Below are positions 7,709 through 45,493 of a stretch of 64,000 nt of DNA, in pieces; position 1 is the first letter of the stretch; each line of letters opens with the position of its first letter. The DNA lies in contig OZ243927.1 in NCBI GenBank assembly GCA_965213925.1, positions 3,392,001 to 3,456,000 on the forward strand. The letters are read 5' to 3'. The notes beneath the pieces are model-generated. The model saw only the letters and a list, made by a program, of their open reading frames with translations. It did not search any database and was not told where the DNA came from. A program made the translations under genes and the position numbers. The DNA is from Trueperaceae bacterium (GTDB lineage Bacteria; Deinococcota; Deinococci; Deinococcales; Trueperaceae).

Positions 7709-7740
7709 GTGTGCGGCGAACGCGCGCGTTAGCCGCACTA
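7709..7740. repeat. 32-bp palindromic module-boundary repeat (A|A arms)
   Basis: GTGTGCGGCGAAC-GCGCGC-GTTAGCCGCACTA. Confidence 0.85.
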
Positions 7741-16980: not shown

Positions 16981-17012
16981 TTGTGCGACGAACGCGCGCG
17001 TCTCTTGCAGAA
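16981..17012. repeat. 32-bp palindromic module-boundary repeat (A|B)
   Basis: TTGTGCGACGAAC-GCGCGC-GTCTCTTGCAGAA. Confidence 0.92.
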
Positions 17013-36456: not shown

Positions 36457-36891
36457 ATGGATGCATTTATTCCCCCTCCAGCACAATCGACGGGCGTTTT
36501 TCATACCTTAGGTCTCACAACCCGACCGCATGATCTAATCAAAGTGGTGAAAGGCGGTCTATCTGTTCAAGTCTTTCGCGTATTAGCCGAAACGCTGGGC
36601 GTCAGCGACGCGGTACTCGCGAATTTAGCAGGCATCAGCGGCACAACCTTGACCCGCCGCAAGCGCGCAGGGCAGCTGACACCCGACGAGAGTGAGCATG
36701 TGCTCAGGATTGCCAACCTACTAGAACGCGCAGCACAGGTGTTCGAAGACGTCGGTGACGCAGCGGAGTGGCTCAAAACGCCTAACCTCAGCCTCGGCAA
36801 CGTCACGCCGCTTAGCTATGCCGACACGGAAATAGGTGCCCGCGAGGTCGAGAACCTACTCGGTCGGATAGACTACGGCGTCTACAGTTAA
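36457..36891 (+). CDS. Antitoxin, Xre/MbcA/ParS family
   Basis: TLTRRK..GQLTPDESE, AAEWLKTPN.SLG..TPL, LGRIDYGVYS; TAGAAT-N6-ATG. Confidence 0.92.
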   Translation: MDAFIPPPAQSTGVFHTLGLTTRPHDLIKVVKGGLSVQVFRVLAETLGVSDAVLANLAGISGTTLTRRKRAGQLTPDESEHVLRIANLLERAAQVFEDVGDAAEWLKTPNLSLGNVTPLSYADTEIGAREVENLLGRIDYGVYS

Positions 36892-36917
36892 ATTGCCCTT
36901 CACCTTACGCAATATGT

Positions 36918-37403
36918 ATGGCTGACGTCCTCACAGCCTGGCGACTTGTCAGACCTAAATATGGCAACCAGGCTGATGCTTTTAGCGGTGAAGGTTCGCG
37001 TCTCTTCGGTGGGCGTTGGAACTCGCCGGGTGTGCGTGTTACTTACGTCAGCTCGAGTCTGTCGCTCGCCACACTAGAGACGCTCGTCCACGCGGACAGG
37101 CGGCGCTTCGAGCGAGACTACGTCGCCTTCAAGCTCTACCTACCTGAAGCGCTCGTGCTCGAGCTGCGCAGTGAGGATTTGCCCGAGGAGTGGCGGGCGA
37201 GGGCCGTGAGCGAGGGCGCGAGGCAAGTTGGAGATGCGTGGCAAGCGGCGCAGGCGAGTGTCGCCTTGTCTGTACCTAGCGTAATCGTGCCTGCGGAGCG
37301 GAACTATCTGCTCAACCCTAGACACCCGCAGTTCAGCGAGCTAACGATTGAAGACCCGCAACCTTTTCGCTTCGACGCACGGCTCGCTGACAAAGGACGA
37401 TAA
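36918..37403 (+). CDS. RES-domain toxin (MbcT/ParT family)
   Basis: WRL, FSGEG...GGRWNSPG, LATLETLVH, VPSVIVP, NYLLNP.H; follows the Xre antitoxin. Confidence 0.92.
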   Translation: MADVLTAWRLVRPKYGNQADAFSGEGSRLFGGRWNSPGVRVTYVSSSLSLATLETLVHADRRRFERDYVAFKLYLPEALVLELRSEDLPEEWRARAVSEGARQVGDAWQAAQASVALSVPSVIVPAERNYLLNPRHPQFSELTIEDPQPFRFDARLADKGR

Positions 37404-37512
37404 AGTCATACTCGCGGCTTTTCATGATCGAGAAGGTACCGCAGTCGCAATGCGTGTGGTCGGGTAGCAGGAGACCGTCACTGGCCTCCCGCCCCTAAGA
37501 GCCGTGCGTGCG

Positions 37513-39948
37513 GTAGGGTAGGATGCCAGCGAGCTGCCTATCAAAGATAGCGCTTTTCCAACATCCCCCCTCCGAACCCCGCATGACCGCTTTCCGTGTC
37601 ACGGGGCTCTCCAGTAATCTCAACATGAAAGTCCTTTCCCGTGGTAGTGCCCTTTATGGATGTCTTGGTGGCAGGTGAGGCAGACCACCAGCGTCTTGCG
37701 TCGGCGAGCCGACATCCTTTGCATCCATTCGGGCCGTGACTTACGCCCTCTTTGTTCAAGGTCTGCCAGTTTTCGGACGTGATGCACTTCGACGTGCTCC
37801 ACCGACCCACAAAGCTCACAGCTTTGCGCTAAAAGGCGGTCCACCACTTCATTACGCCCGTTCCAAATCTTACTGTTCTGGTTGTCGTCCAAGGCTACCC
37901 ATTTGTTCCACCGTAACGGGATGCCGCCAAAGTGGGTGATGAGTGGCTTCTTTTTAGGACCACGGTCCACTTTGACTTGAAGGACTTTATAGCTGCCCTC
38001 CTTGAGGTCGATGGTGGTGCGGTAGCGCCGATAGATTTTCTGGCAACTCGTCCTGAACTTATTCGCCAGCGTTTTCACTAGCGAGAGTTCTGTGACGCGC
38101 TTGAGTCGGCCCAGCGTGTGGAGGTTGTAGGCCATGCGGTAATACTGCACGACCCCGCGGTATTCCGCTTGATATTGGCTGACGATGCTGTAAGCATCGC
38201 TGCTGAGCCTTTGTGGGAGGTGAATGGGCTTGCCGCGTCGCATGTACTTGGCGCAGTGCGCTTTCATGACGTGCGACGGTACCCGGAGTCCGACGCTGCC
38301 GTTGATGCAGCGTTGTCCCCGGTGGTCGTGTTTATCGTCAGCGTGAAGAATGTGGACCTCATAGCCCAGGAAACGCGCTTTCTGCGTGCGCGCGTGGGTC
38401 AGCAGGGTCTTATCCTCGCTAAGCTCAAGCTTGAGTTCGTCGCGTAAGAAGGCGGCAATCTCTTGCTTGATAGCCACGGCCTCGTCTTTTGGCCCTTTCA
38501 GCCCCAGCAGAAAGTCATCGGCATACCTTTGGTACCACAATCGCCGGAAGTTCGGGTCATCGGGGTCGCGCGACGGCATTGTCTGGGCCTGCTGGCTCAG
38601 TTGCCGCGCGGTCTCCCAGTTCCCTGCTTTCCGAGCGTCGTGAGCGGCTTTGGCGATGGCGACATACGGGGGGTAGGTCTTGCGGCGTTCGCCGCGTGTG
38701 TAAGCTGGTATCAGTTCGTGCTCGACAAACTTGTCCAGCCTGTCCAGAACCAGGTTGGTGAGGATTGGACCGACAATCGACCCTTGCGGCACACCGCTGT
38801 AGGTCTGGTGAAAGGTCCAGTTCTCCAGGTAGCCAGCTTCGAGCAGCCCCTTGATAAGCCGCAGGAAGCGGTTGTCGTGGAAGCTCTTCTGCAAGATGTT
38901 CAACAAGACATCGAAGTTAATCTTGTCGAAACACGAGCAGATATCTCCCTCGATAAACCACTTTGTACCTCGACCCTCTTGGGTGACTTTGCGCAAAGCT
39001 GTGTGGCATCCCCGTTTCGGTCGAAAGCCGTGAGAACGGTCGCTGAACCGCGGTTCATAATAGGCTTCCAGGATGGAGCGGATAACTTCTTGAAGAAGTT
39101 TGTCCGACCAGGAAGGCATCCCTAGAGGCCGCATCTTGCCATTCTTTTTGGGAATGTAACGGCGTCGTACCGGCGTCCACCGATACCGCTCTTGGCGTAG
39201 CGCCTCGATGATGGTATCAATTTTCGCTAGGGACATCCCGTCCACGGTTTCGTCCGAGGCACCTGGTGTCAGTGCGCCTTCGTTCTTGTAGAGCTTGGCG
39301 TAGGCGCGCAGGTAGAGGTCAGGCCGGTAGAGTAGGCGATACACCCTTTTAACCGGCAGGCCACGCTGGCCGCGTTCACGTAGGATGGTGAGTACCGTTT
39401 CGGCGGTTCGCATCTCGCGTACCTCACAGTTCCTTTCCATCATGATTACCTGGTCTCCTTCGCCCTGCGAACGGCTCTCCCGCTCTCCCTGGTGGGGCGT
39501 GACGCCCACGACTACTACGAGACCTCCGTTACCTTAGGACTCGCGTCCCTTAGGCAATCCCGTGTTTCGTCACTGAGGAACGTGCTAGAACGACTTAGGC
39601 TCGCCACTCATAGCCTTGGATGAACTCATTGTTCATCGCCCATCAAGCAGAGCGTCATTTGGACGAAACTTGAATCCAAATGTCCTGATGGCGTCGGTGT
39701 ACAGACGTGCTACCGACGGGTGTGCGTGACCACCGCTGGCTATTGGCGTTCAAACAATCCAGTCTTAGCCTTATCATTCAGGCGTTGCAGAGCCGCATCG
39801 TACACGTCTTCCTTTGCGCTCCGCTTTAATGCCATGCTCTTGTCCCCTCCCTCCTTTCGAGCTCAGGTTAGGCATCCGCCTCGGGGTCGTTTGCCCTGAA
39901 CCCCGGCCAACTCCGTTGGCAATTCACTCAATGCGCACCACGGCGCAC
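37513..39948 (-). mobile_element. Inner group II intron with intact RT/maturase/HNH ORF
   Basis: 5' end GTGCGCCG at 39948; domain V GAGCCCCGTGACACGGAAAGCGGTCATGCGGGGTTC and domain VI ending CCTACCCTAC at 37513. Confidence 0.92.
37620..39413 (-). CDS. ltrA: Group II intron reverse transcriptase/maturase with HNH endonuclease (ML-lineage-like)
   Basis: RPLGMPSWSDK, SHGFRP, GVPQGS, RYADDF, FLGY, C-terminal CELC..EVHH..CLTCH; likely start ATG 39413. Confidence 0.95.
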   Translation of the reverse strand: MRTAETVLTILRERGQRGLPVKRVYRLLYRPDLYLRAYAKLYKNEGALTPGASDETVDGMSLAKIDTIIEALRQERYRWTPVRRRYIPKKNGKMRPLGMPSWSDKLLQEVIRSILEAYYEPRFSDRSHGFRPKRGCHTALRKVTQEGRGTKWFIEGDICSCFDKINFDVLLNILQKSFHDNRFLRLIKGLLEAGYLENWTFHQTYSGVPQGSIVGPILTNLVLDRLDKFVEHELIPAYTRGERRKTYPPYVAIAKAAHDARKAGNWETARQLSQQAQTMPSRDPDDPNFRRLWYQRYADDFLLGLKGPKDEAVAIKQEIAAFLRDELKLELSEDKTLLTHARTQKARFLGYEVHILHADDKHDHRGQRCINGSVGLRVPSHVMKAHCAKYMRRGKPIHLPQRLSSDAYSIVSQYQAEYRGVVQYYRMAYNLHTLGRLKRVTELSLVKTLANKFRTSCQKIYRRYRTTIDLKEGSYKVLQVKVDRGPKKKPLITHFGGIPLRWNKWVALDDNQNSKIWNGRNEVVDRLLAQSCELCGSVEHVEVHHVRKLADLEQRGRKSRPEWMQRMSARRRKTLVVCLTCHQDIHKGHYHGKGLSC

Positions 39949-39983
39949 ACTTTCACCGCACACGGCTCAAGCCAATCACGAAG

Positions 39984-40118
39984 CTACCGCGATAAGCTCG
40001 TAGTAGCCCTGAAGATTCGCCCTCTCAGATTGCGAACCCGCCAATTGACAGCTCGCCAGTTCACAGCGTGCCAGTCCGTAGGTCCTTCGGTTTCGTTTGC
40101 AGAGCTTCGGGCTCGCAT
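39984..40118 (-). pseudogene. 44-aa N-terminal remnant of the outer intron's RT
   Basis: MRARSSANETEGPTDWHAVNWRAVNWRVRNLRGRIFRATTSLSR*; the W..VNW....VRNL..RIFRA pattern is the RT N-terminal motif of CL-type intron proteins; it sits directly before domain V. Confidence 0.8.
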
Positions 40119-41060
40119 CTAACTTCCCCTTAGTTGGCAACCTTCAGAACATCTCTCTAGGAGATTGACCAGTCCCACGTCAGCACCCTTTCGGGTTGAG
40201 TATCGGCTCTATCTAGCCCCTTATGATTTCGGGTCGCCTTTCGGCGGCTAGCCTTCGCTTCTTGGGACCTCCTATGCCCGCTGGAGCGTTCGGCGTTCCT
40301 TACGGTTCGCTTACCTGCAACAGGACTCCAACGGGGTTTCCGTGTTCCACTTGTGTGAGCTGCGACCGGGTTAGGCGTGCTCTCTACTCCGGGGTCATGG
40401 TGTCCTCGTGCAGAACGCGCGTACTCTCTGCACCTGTTGAGGCGAGATACCTTATCCTTAGCCTCGACCCGACCATGCCTTATCAACCATCCTTCGACAA
40501 ACCGAACTAACGGAGCTTTGACCGAGCATTCACGTTCGTTCGCCTTACCGGTCTTTCCCTCACCCGAGTCTCTACGATGGTTTAGATTCTCTTAGGCTTT
40601 ACCTCCAGCTTCACACCTTGCCATTACTGGCAACGCATGTGGAAGTCGGGAATGAGCCTGGACACTGGCTCAGAGTTCTTTTCCTCCTTCCTAACTCACT
40701 CACTTCAAGCGACTTCACGTCGCACACGCGCGCGTTAGTCGCACAATGGTTCGTGTGTTGAAAAAGGGTTAAGGGGAAGGTCGAATAACGATGTAATACG
40801 GCTTTCGGGTAACTCCCCTAGGGATTACCTCGAGCGTAGCGAGTAGAAAGAACTACGGATTTCAATGAGTGCGTTCGGACTTCGGTGAAACCCACTGCTC
40901 GTCACTTTGTGGTGTCATGTTGATAGAGCACATAAGAAGCTCAGCTGAGCGCTAGTTCGGCTACAAAGATACTTGTGGTTGTACTTAGCCACATGACGGT
41001 ATACTCTGGGCATCCAAGGTTTGAAGACAAGCCTAGTTCTTGCCGAGCGGAGGGAGTCCA

Positions 41061-43970
41061 ATGGGTAGAGAAGTTTTTCGTTTCCACATCGTCAGACCAC
41101 CAGACGAAAATTTTTTAGAGAAGTTGGGTATTCTCCTCAACCCTGAGGATAGAGAAACTCCTTCTATGAGAGAACTTAGAGAGGCGAAAACACGCGAGGA
41201 GGCGGAACGAGCTGCCACGCGCAACAAAGCTTCAGACGAGTATCTAGACCCTGAGGACGTGCCCGACAATTACAAAACGTTAGCCGAGTGGCAAAAGCAA
41301 AATCCCCACGCACCTCAGGAGCAGGTAGCTAAGGAGGCAAGCATCATCCTCGAGCGCGACCCGCAAGAGGTTGTGGCTAGCGAGGCCTTCCAGTCTCTCC
41401 TCGCTAGGGGAGCAGCTAGCGAAGCCAGCGATTTAATACTAGGTGAACAAGGTTCATCGAAGCAGGCCGTAAAGTATCTACTTGCCGTCAGTAAAGCAGC
41501 TGGCAAGCGTCCCGTCCTCCCCCTCAATCTTAAGTTTGCACCAGGTCCACAGAGCAACACAATGTCTGAGCCTGAGACTTCTAAAATAGATTCGCCGGTC
41601 CCAAGCTTGGTTCAGCTTCAGGCATTGAAGCGGCGTCTGATAAGCTTAAGCCCGTCTAGCCCAACACTCACACTTCAGCAGCAAAGATTCATGCAAGATG
41701 TAAGCCTCCCTCAAGACGACACGACCGGAGATAGTCCCGGCAGAGCAGAACCTCCGCAGCCTGTAGTTATCAGTGACGTCTCCCTCAAGGAGACTGAGGT
41801 CAGCCAACTAAAATCTCTTCAGCTCAGCGCTGACGCATCCATTTCAGAGGCAGTGAATGAACTCGATAGGCAAATGCTGCTTAAGGCCGAGGTCTCAGTA
41901 GCTCCCGCGAGTGCACCTGTGGTCCGGAGTGGGATGCTTGTGATGAGTGCGACCGCATCTGCTGGTGGACCGCAAGCGCTCACTGAATTCAAGGGGGGCT
42001 ACGTTCAAGGGTTTAAGGTCTCTGACCTCGAGGTAGCGGAGCGTGACCTAAAGAGATACGAAGCAGGAGAGATTGCTCACATCGAGAACGCCCTTATGGG
42101 CGAGCGCCGGGTGAGGGAGCATATTAGAAATACGCTACGCGAGGACGTCACCTTTGTGGAGACAAGTATCCTTGAGGCTACAGAGGAGGAACTCCAGACA
42201 GAGGAGAGATTTGGTTTAACGAGAGAAGCGCGTAACGTGCAGCGCTCAGAGGTCGAGAAGCGTGCCGGCTTAAAGCTGGATGCGAGCTACGGACCCTCGG
42301 TAAACGTAGAGACCTACGCTGACTTTTCCTTAACCACGTTTAGTGAGTCTGTCAGCACGACCGCTAGCGAATACGCGAAGACGGTGTCCAGCTTGGCAAC
42401 TGCCCGGATACAGCGTACCTTTAGGGAGCAGCGCCTTACCCGCCGAGTGGAGTCGGTCGAGGAGACAAACTCTCACGAGATTGACAACCGGAACGCTGAC
42501 GGTCACACTGTCGGAATCTACCGCTATGTCGATAAGGTTTACAGCGTCCAGGTTCGTAACTATGGTGTTAGGCTAATGCTCGAGTTTGTCCTTCCTGAGC
42601 CAGGAGCTAATCTCCTGAGGATTGCTAGCCAACCCGTCGGTCAGGTGCTGGTTTTGGACAAGCCGGAGCCGCCGAGGGTGAATGGTAAACCTCTCGAACT
42701 ATCCGATATTGATCCAAATAACGATCTGTGGCGCGTCGTCGCGGCCCGGTATGGTGCCGCGGTCGAACCGCTTCCCGAGAAAAAGGTAGTCTCCCTGACG
42801 CTTAAGTTCGACGAGAAGCCTAACCTCGAGAGAGACGAGGTGAGCCGCCGCGTCGACTCGAATACGGACGAGATCCGGAGCGTTCAGGTCGTTTGGGACG
42901 AGGGCATACTCAAGGTTCCGGATGGTTACGAGGCGCTTAGGGTCTGGGGCACCTCCCTAGGTTTCAACACGACCATAGCTGTATCTTTCGACAAGCATAG
43001 AGCTGAGATAGTTGGGGCAAAACAGCATGTGAAAGTTTATGGTTCAGATTACGTCCGCACCGGCCAAATGCTGGGTGGCTTCAAAGTGCGGGCCGGGATG
43101 GGCCGGGCTGTTGACCTTATAGAGCGCTACGGTGCAGGCGGTGACCTGTACGTTTCGGCTATTTCGTTAGAGACAGAGGAACACAATTATCTCTCCATGG
43201 TAGGTTTCGTCGCCGCCGCTCATGGTCCCCTGGTCATCGAGGCTCTCTGCACACCTACGGAGGAAAGCTGGAACACCTGGCGTTACGAGGTATATACCGC
43301 CATCATGGAGGCGTACAGACAGCAGCAGGCAGCCTACCTAGAAGCGCTGGCTGCCGAAGAGGTGGCGCAAGGGACGAGCATTGACGGGCGCAACCCTGCT
43401 ACTAATCGAGAAGTTGAGAGGGACGAGATCAAGCGGGGCGTGGTCACCTTATTGCGCGGCAGCAAGCCCGACACGGGCTCACTTGCCCAGGATGGCTTTA
43501 GCCCTGACGTCGCGAAGGCCGCTGCACACGGACCCCTCATCAGGTTTTTCGAGACGGCTTTTGAGTGGGAGCACATGGTCTTCGAGCTAGCGCCCTACTT
43601 CTGGGCGAACCCGGATCGTTGGGACCAACTTCTCAAAGCCGACGATCCTGACCCAGAACATAGAAGGTTTCTTCAAGCGGGCTCAGCGCACGTCACCCTC
43701 CCGGTCAGACCTGGGCACGAGTTCTACGCCGCTGCGGCTGTCAGCTTGCTACAGATGACTGGAGGCTCACTTAAGCCTGAGCTATTTACTTCCGAATTAC
43801 CTAACGTCATCCTTCGCGAGTTGTTGGTCGCATCCTTGGAGGCTTCTATCCTCAGAAAGCAGAGGCAAACCGAAGGTCCCGTCGATGTAGGAAAGCCCTT
43901 CGAGGTGACCGTACCAACAAACCTGGTTATCTTGCAGGAGGGCTCGGACCTAAACGAGGCTAAGACGTGA
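41061..43970 (+). CDS. Large hypothetical protein (~970 aa), function unknown
   Basis: Long ORF with GGAGGGAG RBS; conserved-looking blocks LKRYEAGEIAHIEN, YRYVDKVY..QVRNYG.RLMLEF..PEPG, FFETAFEWEHM, FLQAGSA.V..PVRPG. Confidence 0.8.
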   Translation: MGREVFRFHIVRPPDENFLEKLGILLNPEDRETPSMRELREAKTREEAERAATRNKASDEYLDPEDVPDNYKTLAEWQKQNPHAPQEQVAKEASIILERDPQEVVASEAFQSLLARGAASEASDLILGEQGSSKQAVKYLLAVSKAAGKRPVLPLNLKFAPGPQSNTMSEPETSKIDSPVPSLVQLQALKRRLISLSPSSPTLTLQQQRFMQDVSLPQDDTTGDSPGRAEPPQPVVISDVSLKETEVSQLKSLQLSADASISEAVNELDRQMLLKAEVSVAPASAPVVRSGMLVMSATASAGGPQALTEFKGGYVQGFKVSDLEVAERDLKRYEAGEIAHIENALMGERRVREHIRNTLREDVTFVETSILEATEEELQTEERFGLTREARNVQRSEVEKRAGLKLDASYGPSVNVETYADFSLTTFSESVSTTASEYAKTVSSLATARIQRTFREQRLTRRVESVEETNSHEIDNRNADGHTVGIYRYVDKVYSVQVRNYGVRLMLEFVLPEPGANLLRIASQPVGQVLVLDKPEPPRVNGKPLELSDIDPNNDLWRVVAARYGAAVEPLPEKKVVSLTLKFDEKPNLERDEVSRRVDSNTDEIRSVQVVWDEGILKVPDGYEALRVWGTSLGFNTTIAVSFDKHRAEIVGAKQHVKVYGSDYVRTGQMLGGFKVRAGMGRAVDLIERYGAGGDLYVSAISLETEEHNYLSMVGFVAAAHGPLVIEALCTPTEESWNTWRYEVYTAIMEAYRQQQAAYLEALAAEEVAQGTSIDGRNPATNREVERDEIKRGVVTLLRGSKPDTGSLAQDGFSPDVAKAAAHGPLIRFFETAFEWEHMVFELAPYFWANPDRWDQLLKADDPDPEHRRFLQAGSAHVTLPVRPGHEFYAAAAVSLLQMTGGSLKPELFTSELPNVILRELLVASLEASILRKQRQTEGPVDVGKPFEVTVPTNLVILQEGSDLNEAKT

Positions 43971-45493
43971 GCCTGCAAAGCAGCCGCGGGCTTCCCAAAA
44001 AGCGCCGAGGAGGACATCGTCTGAAGGATATCGCTAATATCGCCTTCGGTGGTGGCGGCGCAAAAGGCGTTGCCCACGTAGGGGCGCTCGCTGGACTGGA
44101 GAAAGCGGGTGTGCTTATTTACGGAGACTATAGCTACCGTGAGGGTCACCTTCTCAAACGCCTTAGTAGACTCGTACCGGGGACAATCGGACTCTCGGGC
44201 ACAAGCATCGGTTCGCTCATTGCCGCGCTCACTGCATCGGGTTACACCTCAGCAGAGTTGAAGGCTAAGCTGCTCGACAGCAACGCAATGCTTAAAGCTG
44301 TAGTGAACTTCCAAAGTGCTGCTAGCGCGGGTATACCTACATTGGATCAGAACTTCGCCTACGATCACAAGCCTGCTAAGCGGGAGGGCGCGATATGGGG
44401 TGTTAAAAAATCAGCGCCTCTGACTGTCGATACCCGTAGGCAATACATACGGAAAGGAGGCTGGGTCTTTTTTGGCACACGAGGCAAAGTGGTAGCTAGG
44501 AACGTTGGCTTCTTCGCCCTTAGGTATGCCGTGGAGTCGGAAATACATGATGTGTTAGCTGAACTCTTCCGTGAGAGCTCGCGGCGCGCGCCAAGGGGCG
44601 GTGCGAACGGACTATCTACCTTAGATAAGAACAGGTTGCAAAAACTTGCAGGTGACGCTATACCTGAAACAGTTTATAGATACCTCGGTTTCTTTAAGGG
44701 GCAATCTTTAGTACAACTCGTGAGTCAGCTCATCTATTCAAAGCTGAGGCCTGGTGAGCGTGAGCTGATTCATGAGGACAACCGTATGTATTTCGGAGTA
44801 AAACGGATTGAGGACTTATCAGAAGCCCAGCGAATGAGGGTGTCGTTCGCCCGCCATAAAGAGTGCTTTGGCATCAACCTGAGACTCACCGGGGCCAACC
44901 TCGAGACACAAATGAGCCACGTGTTTAGCGCCCGCACTACTCCTACGATGGCAGTAGCGGACGCCGTACGCATCTCGGCGAGCTTCCCACTCCTATTTAG
45001 ACCGACTCTTATCTCCTTTGAGAAAGCCGAAAAGATGTCTGAGGCAGAGTCTTGGGCGCTGAGCCCCGAAGAGCTTACGGGCATATGGATCGACGGCGGC
45101 ATATACAATAACGTACCTTGGGACGTGTTCGACACCGGCTTAACTCTTGGCTTAGCGCTGGGTGCAACGCCTGAGGAGAAGCGTAGTCCCGCCTGGCAAA
45201 CTGTCCATGACCCGTTCTCTTACCCACCTTTTGAAGAGGATGAAGAGGACCGCCTCAACGCACTACTAGAAACCTATGCGCACAGCAAACTCCTGGACGA
45301 TACGTCGCGGCTCAACAATAGTTACGGTAACGTTAAGTATAGTCGGATTCGCTTAGACGCAACTCCCATTGATACACTCGATATAGCGGGGTATCACAAC
45401 CTCCCACTCCGAGAGCGAACGGCTTTGCTGAATCGCAACCAGACTATTGTTTCGTCACACCTAAAAAAATTTACCTCTGTCGCCCAGCGGTAA
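43967..45493 (+). CDS. Patatin-like phospholipase
   Basis: GGGGAKG oxyanion loop, GTSIG nucleophile, AVRISASFP, DGG catalytic Asp; GTGA overlap with the upstream gene. Confidence 0.9.
   Translation: MSLQSSRGLPKKRRGGHRLKDIANIAFGGGGAKGVAHVGALAGLEKAGVLIYGDYSYREGHLLKRLSRLVPGTIGLSGTSIGSLIAALTASGYTSAELKAKLLDSNAMLKAVVNFQSAASAGIPTLDQNFAYDHKPAKREGAIWGVKKSAPLTVDTRRQYIRKGGWVFFGTRGKVVARNVGFFALRYAVESEIHDVLAELFRESSRRAPRGGANGLSTLDKNRLQKLAGDAIPETVYRYLGFFKGQSLVQLVSQLIYSKLRPGERELIHEDNRMYFGVKRIEDLSEAQRMRVSFARHKECFGINLRLTGANLETQMSHVFSARTTPTMAVADAVRISASFPLLFRPTLISFEKAEKMSEAESWALSPEELTGIWIDGGIYNNVPWDVFDTGLTLGLALGATPEEKRSPAWQTVHDPFSYPPFEEDEEDRLNALLETYAHSKLLDDTSRLNNSYGNVKYSRIRLDATPIDTLDIAGYHNLPLRERTALLNRNQTIVSSHLKKFTSVAQR

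Follow-up and report, generated by a model that had tools for sequence, protein, structure and literature searches.

We analysed a 64,000-nt stretch of DNA (hereafter the window) from a Trueperaceae bacterium of the Deinococcota (GenBank assembly GCA_965213925.1, contig OZ243927.1, positions 3,392,001 to 3,456,000) and found that its minus-strand region 40725-37459 consists of two nested group II introns, as seen from the alignment of their junctions with related loci, from Rfam matches and from RNA folds. Our best explanation as a whole, in which we have moderate confidence, is that this region is a group II twintron: an outer, IIB1-like intron lacking an open reading frame (ORF) lies in a copy of a palindromic intergenic repeat and is itself interrupted, in its domain V, by an LtrA-like intron.

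The outer intron comprises 831 nt without a protein gene (40725-39949 plus 37512-37459). On the minus strand its 5' exon, the left part of the split repeat (40746-40726, with the fixed core at 40743-40726), reads ...TTGTGCG-ACTAACG-CGCGCGT up to position 40726, and the intron opens with GTGCG at 40725. The 5' segment of 777 nt (40725-39949, starting GTGCGACGTGAAGTCGC) carries domains I-IV together with 20 nt from the start of domain V; it aligns with introns of five related loci (L023, L025, L056, L057 and L058) and contains a match to the Rfam domain I model RF02012 (40673-40588, 39 bits for a gathering score of 34). Two 3' ends could be considered, namely ...CCTACCCTAC followed by CGCACGCA, at 37513, and ...GCTACCCGAC followed by CACACGCA, at 37459. 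An earlier sequence-only reading of this DNA had placed the junction between 37459 and 37458, and we find this placement to be correct, since L056, L057 and L058 have an uninterrupted domain V and then GCTACCCGAC at their 3' ends, the same ten final bases as in the window. The ends of L023 and L025 are related. The 3' end at 37513 was rejected on account of the position at which relatives of the protein-coding intron begin to align, of the rejoined 34-nt domain V and of its colinearity with L058. The 3' exon, the right part of the split repeat (37458-37448), consists of CACACGCA at 37458-37451 and its flank.

When the outer intron is folded with the inner one removed, both the domain V and the domain VI hairpins are predicted. 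The 5' half of domain V, GAGCCGTGTGCGGTGAAAGT (39968-39949), which stops 2 nt past the GAAA loop, pairs with the 3' half, CGCACGCACGGCTC (37512-37499), to give a 34-nt hairpin of 14 bp with the AGC triad, a 2-nt bulge and the GAAA loop. This rejoined hairpin is colinear with the uninterrupted domain V of L058, and the two pair changes between them are both compensatory. Domain VI (37495-37462), placed by the fold and by the ends of L056, L057 and L058, has its bulged A at 37465, at a distance of 6 nt from the last intron base (37459), and is followed by the final three intron bases GAC. Rfam reports no domain V for the outer intron because the inner intron splits that domain; the only domain V/VI match within 37448-40746 (RF00029, 37611-37513, 46 bits) belongs to the inner intron.

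With respect to its class, the outer intron could be placed through its relatives. The RF02012 scores were 110.6 bits for L023 and 68.9 bits for L025, in both cases upstream of an inner-type intron, and these were the only two such cases among 39 loci scanned with Rfam, 20 further ones of which gave no match of this kind. A blastn search against plasmids returned three full-length relatives, in Rhizobium (L056), Kitasatospora (L057) and Arthrobacter (L058), at ~70-72% identity over a third to half of the query (71.6% over 49% of the query for the Rhizobium plasmid intron against the outer 5' segment). When the complete element was compared by blastn with the 55 loci described below, nothing matched the outer 5' part, and it was only Rfam that revealed L023 and L025 as members of its class. 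The closest structure to the L023 and L056 proteins is the TeI4h reverse transcriptase (6ME0_C; E=1e-161 and 2.5e-117, respectively), and TeI4h is described as a IIB1 intron of the chloroplast-like lineage (PMC2882425). Judged by these proteins of its homologues, its own having been lost, the outer intron would be of the IIB1/chloroplast-like kind. A trace of the lost gene persists in domain IV as an ORF remnant of 44 codons plus stop (40118-39984), in which 10 of 25 residues are shared with the L023 outer-intron protein over its residues 18-42 (BLASTP E=2e-4); the comparison with the L025 protein was not significant (E=15). The place of the remnant is homologous to the ORF position of the relatives, and blastn alignments of the outer intron to rhizobial introns extend into the start of their ltrA.

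The inner intron is complete (2436 nt, 39948-37513), starts with GTGCGCC, ends with CCTACCCTAC and is colinear with 55 related loci. Its reading frame, the only long ORF of the element (39509-37620), matches the Pfam families RVT_1, Intron_maturas2 and AI2M-like_HNH; counted from the first ATG, the gene (39443-37620) encodes a 607-residue reverse transcriptase with maturase and HNH endonuclease, whose nearest solved relative is LtrA (5G2X_C, E=9e-116). The 55 loci came from a search of 185,579 species genomes with this protein, none being from the window's own genome. They are mostly cyanobacterial and share 61-77% protein identity with the inner protein over the best segment, with 83-85% on two short fragments. 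In blastn, these relatives align from position 39968 or later in the element and never with the preceding 757 nt, and their introns begin with GTGCGCC, as the window does at 39948. Because the proteins are TeI4h-like on one side and LtrA-like on the other, the outer and inner introns belong to different lineages, and to judge from these affinities the inner protein probably does not act on the outer RNA.

The insertion into domain V recurs among these relatives. In 24 of the 29 loci with a visible 5' junction, the inner-type intron is preceded by 20 nt that represent a domain V 5' half (GAGC...GAAA and 2 nt more), and past the relatives' 3' ends we found the 3' half and then domain VI. The exon ends fold into an AGC-starting hairpin of at least 10 bp in 17 of the 22 loci with both junctions, L002 and L004 missing it by register only. 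In the window, the 5' half of the outer domain V doubles as the 5' exon of the inner intron, providing both of its intron-binding sites (IBS2 and IBS1): the inner exon-binding site 2 (EBS2), CGCACAC, pairs at seven of seven positions with outer domain V bases -15 to -9, and the pairing of the EBS1 loop with GAAA and the following 2 nt has a single mismatch. Three of the five exceptions (L027, L028 and L044) lie at other sites, and the other two (L031 and L032) lie in a domain V-shaped hairpin without AGC; in all of these members EBS1 is altered and matches their own exons. The lineage with domain V insertions spans cyanobacteria, proteobacteria, Rickettsiales, Anaerolineales and others, and its host introns are of several classes.

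Some further observations concern this lineage. Across the window and L001-L048, the inner-type introns with a domain V insertion share one fixed position in domain V, 2 nt past the GNRA loop, an EBS1 loop ..CTTTC pairing with GAAA plus 2 nt, and an EBS2 pairing with the domain V 5' strand. The hairpin around L031 and L032, both from Pirellulaceae, has 13 bp and a 2-nt bulge and lacks the AGC triad; it could be a degenerate host intron or a domain V mimic. In L008 and L018 the halves of the host domain V mismatch, the 5' half of L008 being that of L009 and its 3' half resembling those of L017 and L018, which suggests that twintron copies may have recombined via the shared inner intron. Finally, a 31-codon ORF with a strong ribosome-binding site is found in inner domain I (39835-39740, minus strand), and its peptide looks conserved in relatives. 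Among these, the ATG is missing in 5 of 30 and internal stops occur in ~10 of 30, and the ORF is probably non-coding, with conservation at the RNA level.

We regard the inner lineage as a side result that is better supported than the targeting of the repeat discussed below. Here one intron parasitises another at the 34 nt that are most conserved in the host, and splicing is thereby forced to proceed in sequence. In the openly searchable literature, with subscription surveys (notably those of the Zimmerly and Michel laboratories) and supplements outside the scope of the search, we found no description of bacterial introns homing into domain V.

The outer intron, in turn, is inserted in a repeat that is numerous in the window. 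The pattern TGCG-N4-ACGCGCGCGT-N4-CGCA has 20 matches at up to 4 mismatches in its 18 fixed positions; at that same threshold, 50 shuffles gave 0.78 matches on average and never more than 3. Twelve intact copies are found at up to 3 of 18 mismatches, 11 of which fall outside any ORF of at least 150 aa. Excision of the twintron yields TGCG-ACTA-ACGCGCGCGT-CACA-CGCA, a thirteenth copy of this 26-32 bp repeat with none of the 18 fixed positions mismatched, and the insertion point lies 2 nt beyond GCGCGC, inside the palindrome and 5 nt past its centre. Both the restoration and the position relative to GCGCGC had been anticipated by the sequence-only reading, with the small deviation that the 3-nt outer flank on the right, ttg, does not form a palindrome with the left one. 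The arms of the restored copy, ACTA and CACA, are not complementary to each other. We also noted that CGCACGCA (37512-37504, in the 3' strand of the outer domain V) resembles the right half of the repeat, CACACGCA.

The repeat resembles repetitive extragenic palindromic (REP) elements in being present in many copies, palindromic and located between genes. As for a REP-type (Y1) transposase, no transposase family was detected among the 48 window ORFs scanned against Pfam, and the genes neighbouring the repeats are ordinary chromosomal ones by the same scan. The 55 loci of the inner lineage (319,757 nt) contained no match to the repeat at up to 3 mismatches. We considered integron attC sites as an identity for the repeat and rejected it. 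The core sites of attC are of the RYYYAAC / GTTRRRY type and have an integrase nearby; the copies in the window read ...GCGCGT followed by variable arms (CTCTC, TCGCC), there is no integrase in the window, and genes lie on both strands. The intron had further been taken as independent support for the repeats being old, numerous and functional. The repeat family is indeed real and numerous in the window by its own count; its age and function do not follow from the intron, which shows only that this one copy predates the insertion.

The recognition of this site by the outer intron can be followed base by base. The 5' exon ends in IBS2 (ACTAACG, 40739-40733) and IBS1 (CGCGCGT, 40732-40726). EBS1, ACGCGCG (40422-40416), lies in the 12-nt loop of a hairpin at 40433-40408 that appears in every fold made, and EBS2, CGTTAGT (40512-40506, outer intron positions 214-220), pairs at seven of seven positions with exon bases -14 to -8. 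Together they are complementary to exon positions -14 to -1 by 14 of 14 Watson-Crick pairs, in two contiguous blocks of 7, exactly as the sequence-only reading had set out for the exon, the GTGCG start and the two binding sites. EBS1 pairs with the invariant repeat core CGCGCGT and EBS2 with the core ACG plus the arm ACTA, so that 10 of the 14 paired bases belong to the repeat core. The arm capped by the EBS1 hairpin holds EBS2 on its 5' strand, 84 nt upstream of EBS1 and immediately following a short GCTC stem. According to 20,000 shuffles, a perfect 7-mer complement to exon -14 to -8 is expected with P=0.031 anywhere in 831 nt and with P=0.006 in the 150 nt upstream of EBS1.

The homologues bear out this placement. 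The EBS1 hairpin has a different stem in each intron, and its loop matches the respective exon in L023 (GGGTTT with AAACCC), L025 (GGGTCT with AGACCC), L056 (GCTTGGC with GCCAGGC, with one G-U pair and position -1 unpaired) and L058 (CATCTG with CAGGTG, with one G-U pair). Likewise, the EBS2 of L058 (CAGGGTG), L023 (ATTACA) and L025 (ATCTACA) complement their own exons at -13 to -7 or -8 and lie within 3 nt of the EBS2 columns of the window in a six-sequence MAFFT alignment. A three-sequence MAFFT alignment had put those of L023 and L025 ~25 columns off, and neither alignment is structure-aware, the sequences being ~55-62% identical. Based on these findings, EBS1 is confirmed and the placement of EBS2 at 40506-40512 is well supported. 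For EBS3, no covariation signal emerged. The rejoined outer domain V also contains an 8-nt complement of exon -19 to -12; this and the likeness of CGCACGCA to CACACGCA are probably coincidences.

Considering all the above results, we propose the following course of events. An ORF-less derivative of the IIB1/chloroplast-like kind would have inserted by reverse splicing into one copy of the REP-like repeat, recognising the site via 14 contiguous base pairs, with EBS1 on CGCGCGT and EBS2 on ACG plus ACTA. Since the outer intron has no protein of its own, that of a related intron must have acted in trans. The perfect match, with 10 of 14 bases in the repeat core, argues that the intron was already specific for this sequence on arrival, and the donor copy would most probably have resided in another copy of the repeat. 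An LtrA-like, endonuclease-bearing intron may then have homed into the outer domain V, 2 nt past the GAAA loop. This second insertion splits the catalytic hairpin, and therefore the outer intron can be expected to fold and splice only after the inner one has left. The inner intron could not have travelled with the outer RNA and would therefore have inserted in place.

Several observations weigh against this explanation. The 3' end of the inner intron at 37513 restores the repeat equally well, with 0 of 18 mismatches, because CGCACGCA resembles CACACGCA; restoration alone cannot therefore fix the 3' junction. The EBS2 candidate of L056 lies ~8 alignment columns off, L057 has no EBS match to its own exon and was excluded from the EBS argument, and no alignment column tracks the first 3'-exon base across the six introns, as EBS3 would by covariation. 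Moreover, the EBS1/EBS2 stretch is no more stable than shuffled sequence (z=-0.04), and a scan of 40650-41150 found no sigma-70-like promoter upstream of the intron on its strand. As for the specificity for the repeat, it rests on one site, that of the single known copy of the outer intron, and only 1 of the 13 repeat copies in the window is occupied. The empty site at 7712(-) would offer 13 Watson-Crick pairs plus one G-U pair, and those at 16984(+), 55161(+) and 59977(+) 13 of 14 pairs each, the first two of these three sharing also the first 3'-exon base. Neither a second outer-intron end nor a related protein-coding intron of the outer class is present in the window. Finally, the five homologues have different exon-binding sites and lie in unrelated flanking sequence, L025 alone among them being at a palindrome.

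How much follows from the match itself deserves caution. To our knowledge a match to the 5' exon is common to all group II introns, and taken alone it is thus uninformative on whether a lineage has adopted the repeat. A perfect 14 of 14 match is, on the other hand, what is expected from retrohoming by a donor in the same sequence. Adoption of the repeat as a multi-copy target, as put forward in the sequence-only reading, is plausible because such a match would imply prior specificity for the repeat sequence. The search for other outer-intron copies that had been suggested as a check gave none in the window; the homologues found elsewhere carry other exon-binding sites in unrelated sequence, and there is no sign of spread inside the window. 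It is conceivable, if rather doubtful, that the outer intron belongs to a IIB1 family homing on this repeat, which would make a fourth kind of bacterial target and offer an ORF-less ribozyme hundreds of harmless sites per genome, and that this family is parasitised by the widespread domain V-homing LtrA-like lineage, its splicing being made dependent on that of the parasite. If true, sequence-guided introns outside the IIC class would exploit short intergenic repeats as safe and abundant targets, as insertion sequences (IS) do with REPs and IIC introns with terminators and attC, and the outer intron would be a natural example of an ORF-less ribozyme kept up by a protein supplied in trans. What the window shows is mobile elements nesting in harmless DNA and not a novel kind of system.

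A stronger version, in which a numerous and active family of the outer intron has spread through many repeat copies as a safe multi-copy landing site, seems to us a tentative possibility. The 14 of 14 match spans the conserved core, at least 12 further repeat copies occur within 64 kb, several of them offering 13-14 of 14 pairs, and ORF-less IIB1 introns are described as having proliferated in Thermosynechococcus via trans-acting proteins, at conserved sites in other mobile elements (PMC2882425). Against such a spread, the other 12 copies in the window are all empty, the window holds no sibling intron, and the copy at hand has neither a protein gene nor an intact catalytic domain.

A one-off landing at a partly matching site, with perfect pairing acquired later or by luck and the repeat having no special role, is improbable in our view. 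It would agree with the single copy seen, with the near-perfect sites left unoccupied and with the unrelated sequences targeted by the homologues. Ectopic insertions, however, usually pair imperfectly, and here all 14 pairs are Watson-Crick. Furthermore, the repeat core accounts for ~0.6% of the window (13 copies, each of 26 bp, within ~60.7 kb), so a chance landing in it is unlikely, and a later improvement of the pairing would need selection on an intergenic element without a protein gene.

We also weighed targeting of the IIC kind, in which the hairpin shape of the palindrome would be recognised rather than its sequence, and hold it to be very unlikely. The target is palindromic, and the outer intron of L025 lies directly after a perfect 20-bp hairpin; yet in the window the insertion falls inside the palindrome rather than after it, the arms of this copy are unpaired, and the intron has a 7-nt EBS2 beside the 7-nt EBS1, a 34-nt domain V and relatives with TeI4h-like proteins. 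The assignment of the outer intron outside class IIC in the sequence-only reading is confirmed by these features. A palindrome is the location in only two of the six introns of the outer class, and a class-wide preference for palindromes was rejected on this count. In L025 (positions 330-373, Paracaedibacteraceae) the 3' arm of the hairpin provides IBS2 and IBS1, a terminator-like context for an intron that is not IIC.

Least of all do we credit a single intron at 40725-37513 with the 3' remains of an older intron, consisting of domain VI and a half-site, left behind it at 37512-37459: the only Rfam domain V/VI match does stop at 37513 and the bases beyond it, CGCACGCA, also complete the repeat, but relatives of the protein-coding intron align from 39968 and not from 40725, a canonical 34-nt domain V colinear with that of L058 arises from the 20 nt ahead of 39948 together with the 14 nt past 37513, the same split layout recurs in 24 of 29 loci, and the 5' 777 nt are of another intron class than the inner intron.

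The twintron lies 45 nt past a RES toxin gene and ~300 nt ahead of an unrelated 976-codon ORF, both on the opposite strand. The element is thus intergenic and antisense to both neighbours; it breaks no gene and destroys only one palindrome. In the flanking stretches (36457-37403 and 41040-45493), the split repeat parts the pair of an Xre-like antitoxin and the RES toxin from the 976-codon ORF, which has no Pfam match and is followed by a patatin-like phospholipase. Elsewhere in the window, one ORF (23824-21770, minus strand) joins a GGDEF diguanylate cyclase to a terpene synthase C-terminal domain and adjoins a cytochrome P450 (23919-25283).

In the searchable literature we found nothing closer to introns outside class IIC in palindromic repeats than the TeI3/TeI4 introns of Thermosynechococcus elongatus and a REP-associated intron of Pseudomonas putida. 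The former are IIB1 introns of the chloroplast-like lineage (Mohr et al. 2010, PMC2882425) and, by the proteins of the window's relatives, share the structural and protein lineage of our outer intron. As that account describes them, they likewise comprise ORF-less deletion derivatives that keep domain IV, insert, with good EBS/IBS pairing, mostly between genes, exploit conserved sites within other mobile elements and form twintrons, and the action of a related protein on these ORF-less derivatives in trans has been shown experimentally. They differ from the window in that there the intron without an ORF is the inner one, placed in domain IV between two start codons, whereas here the outer intron lacks the ORF and the inner one splits domain V. 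In addition, the target here is a short palindromic repeat and not an IS element or an intron ORF, and proliferation is documented for TeI3/TeI4 only (PMC2882425). More generally, ORF-less introns are said to be rare in bacteria and as a rule to occur alongside related introns that supply the protein in trans (Zimmerly and Semper 2015, PMC4424553).

The bacterial targets named in the part of that 2015 review available to us are homing sites, terminators and attC only (PMC4424553). Introns of class IIC, found at the latter two, resemble our case in residing in short, multi-copy, imperfect inverted repeats between genes. They insert after the stem-loop and have no EBS2, their domain V is shorter and their proteins carry no endonuclease domain (see also PMC4424553), whereas the IIB1-like intron of the window uses 14 base pairs inside the palindrome. 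In P. putida, 2 of 9 copies of a group II intron were associated with REPs (Tobes and Pareja 2006, PMC1525189). There too, mobile elements land in palindromic repeats between genes; as reported in that work, the association is loose, concerns mostly IS elements and comes with no base-paired EBS1/EBS2 match.

With regard to nesting, what sets the window apart from the twintrons considered here is an inner intron of a widespread bacterial lineage, at one fixed domain V position and in hosts of several classes. An inner intron also interrupts domain V in the psbF twintron of Euglena. The known cyanobacterial and archaeal twintrons are nested in domain I, in domain IV or in ORFs, as far as the sources consulted describe them (PMC4649490, PMC2882425, PMC4424553). 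The Trichodesmium twintron, the sole cyanobacterial one listed in the portion of a 2025 review that we consulted (PMC12702839), shares with ours an intron in an intron of which the inner splices first, and differs in having the inner intron in domain I (PMC4649490). The nested introns of Methanosarcina show similarly repeated, site-specific homing into other group II introns, their targets being intron ORFs (via PMC4424553). Lastly, the "specialized" IIB1 intron EcKTE56.groEL resembles our case as a IIB1 family tied to one genetic context (PMC12584367). Its place is at the stop codon of a housekeeping gene present in one copy, in contrast to the intergenic repeat of the window, and its mobility is reported there as shown experimentally (PMC12584367).

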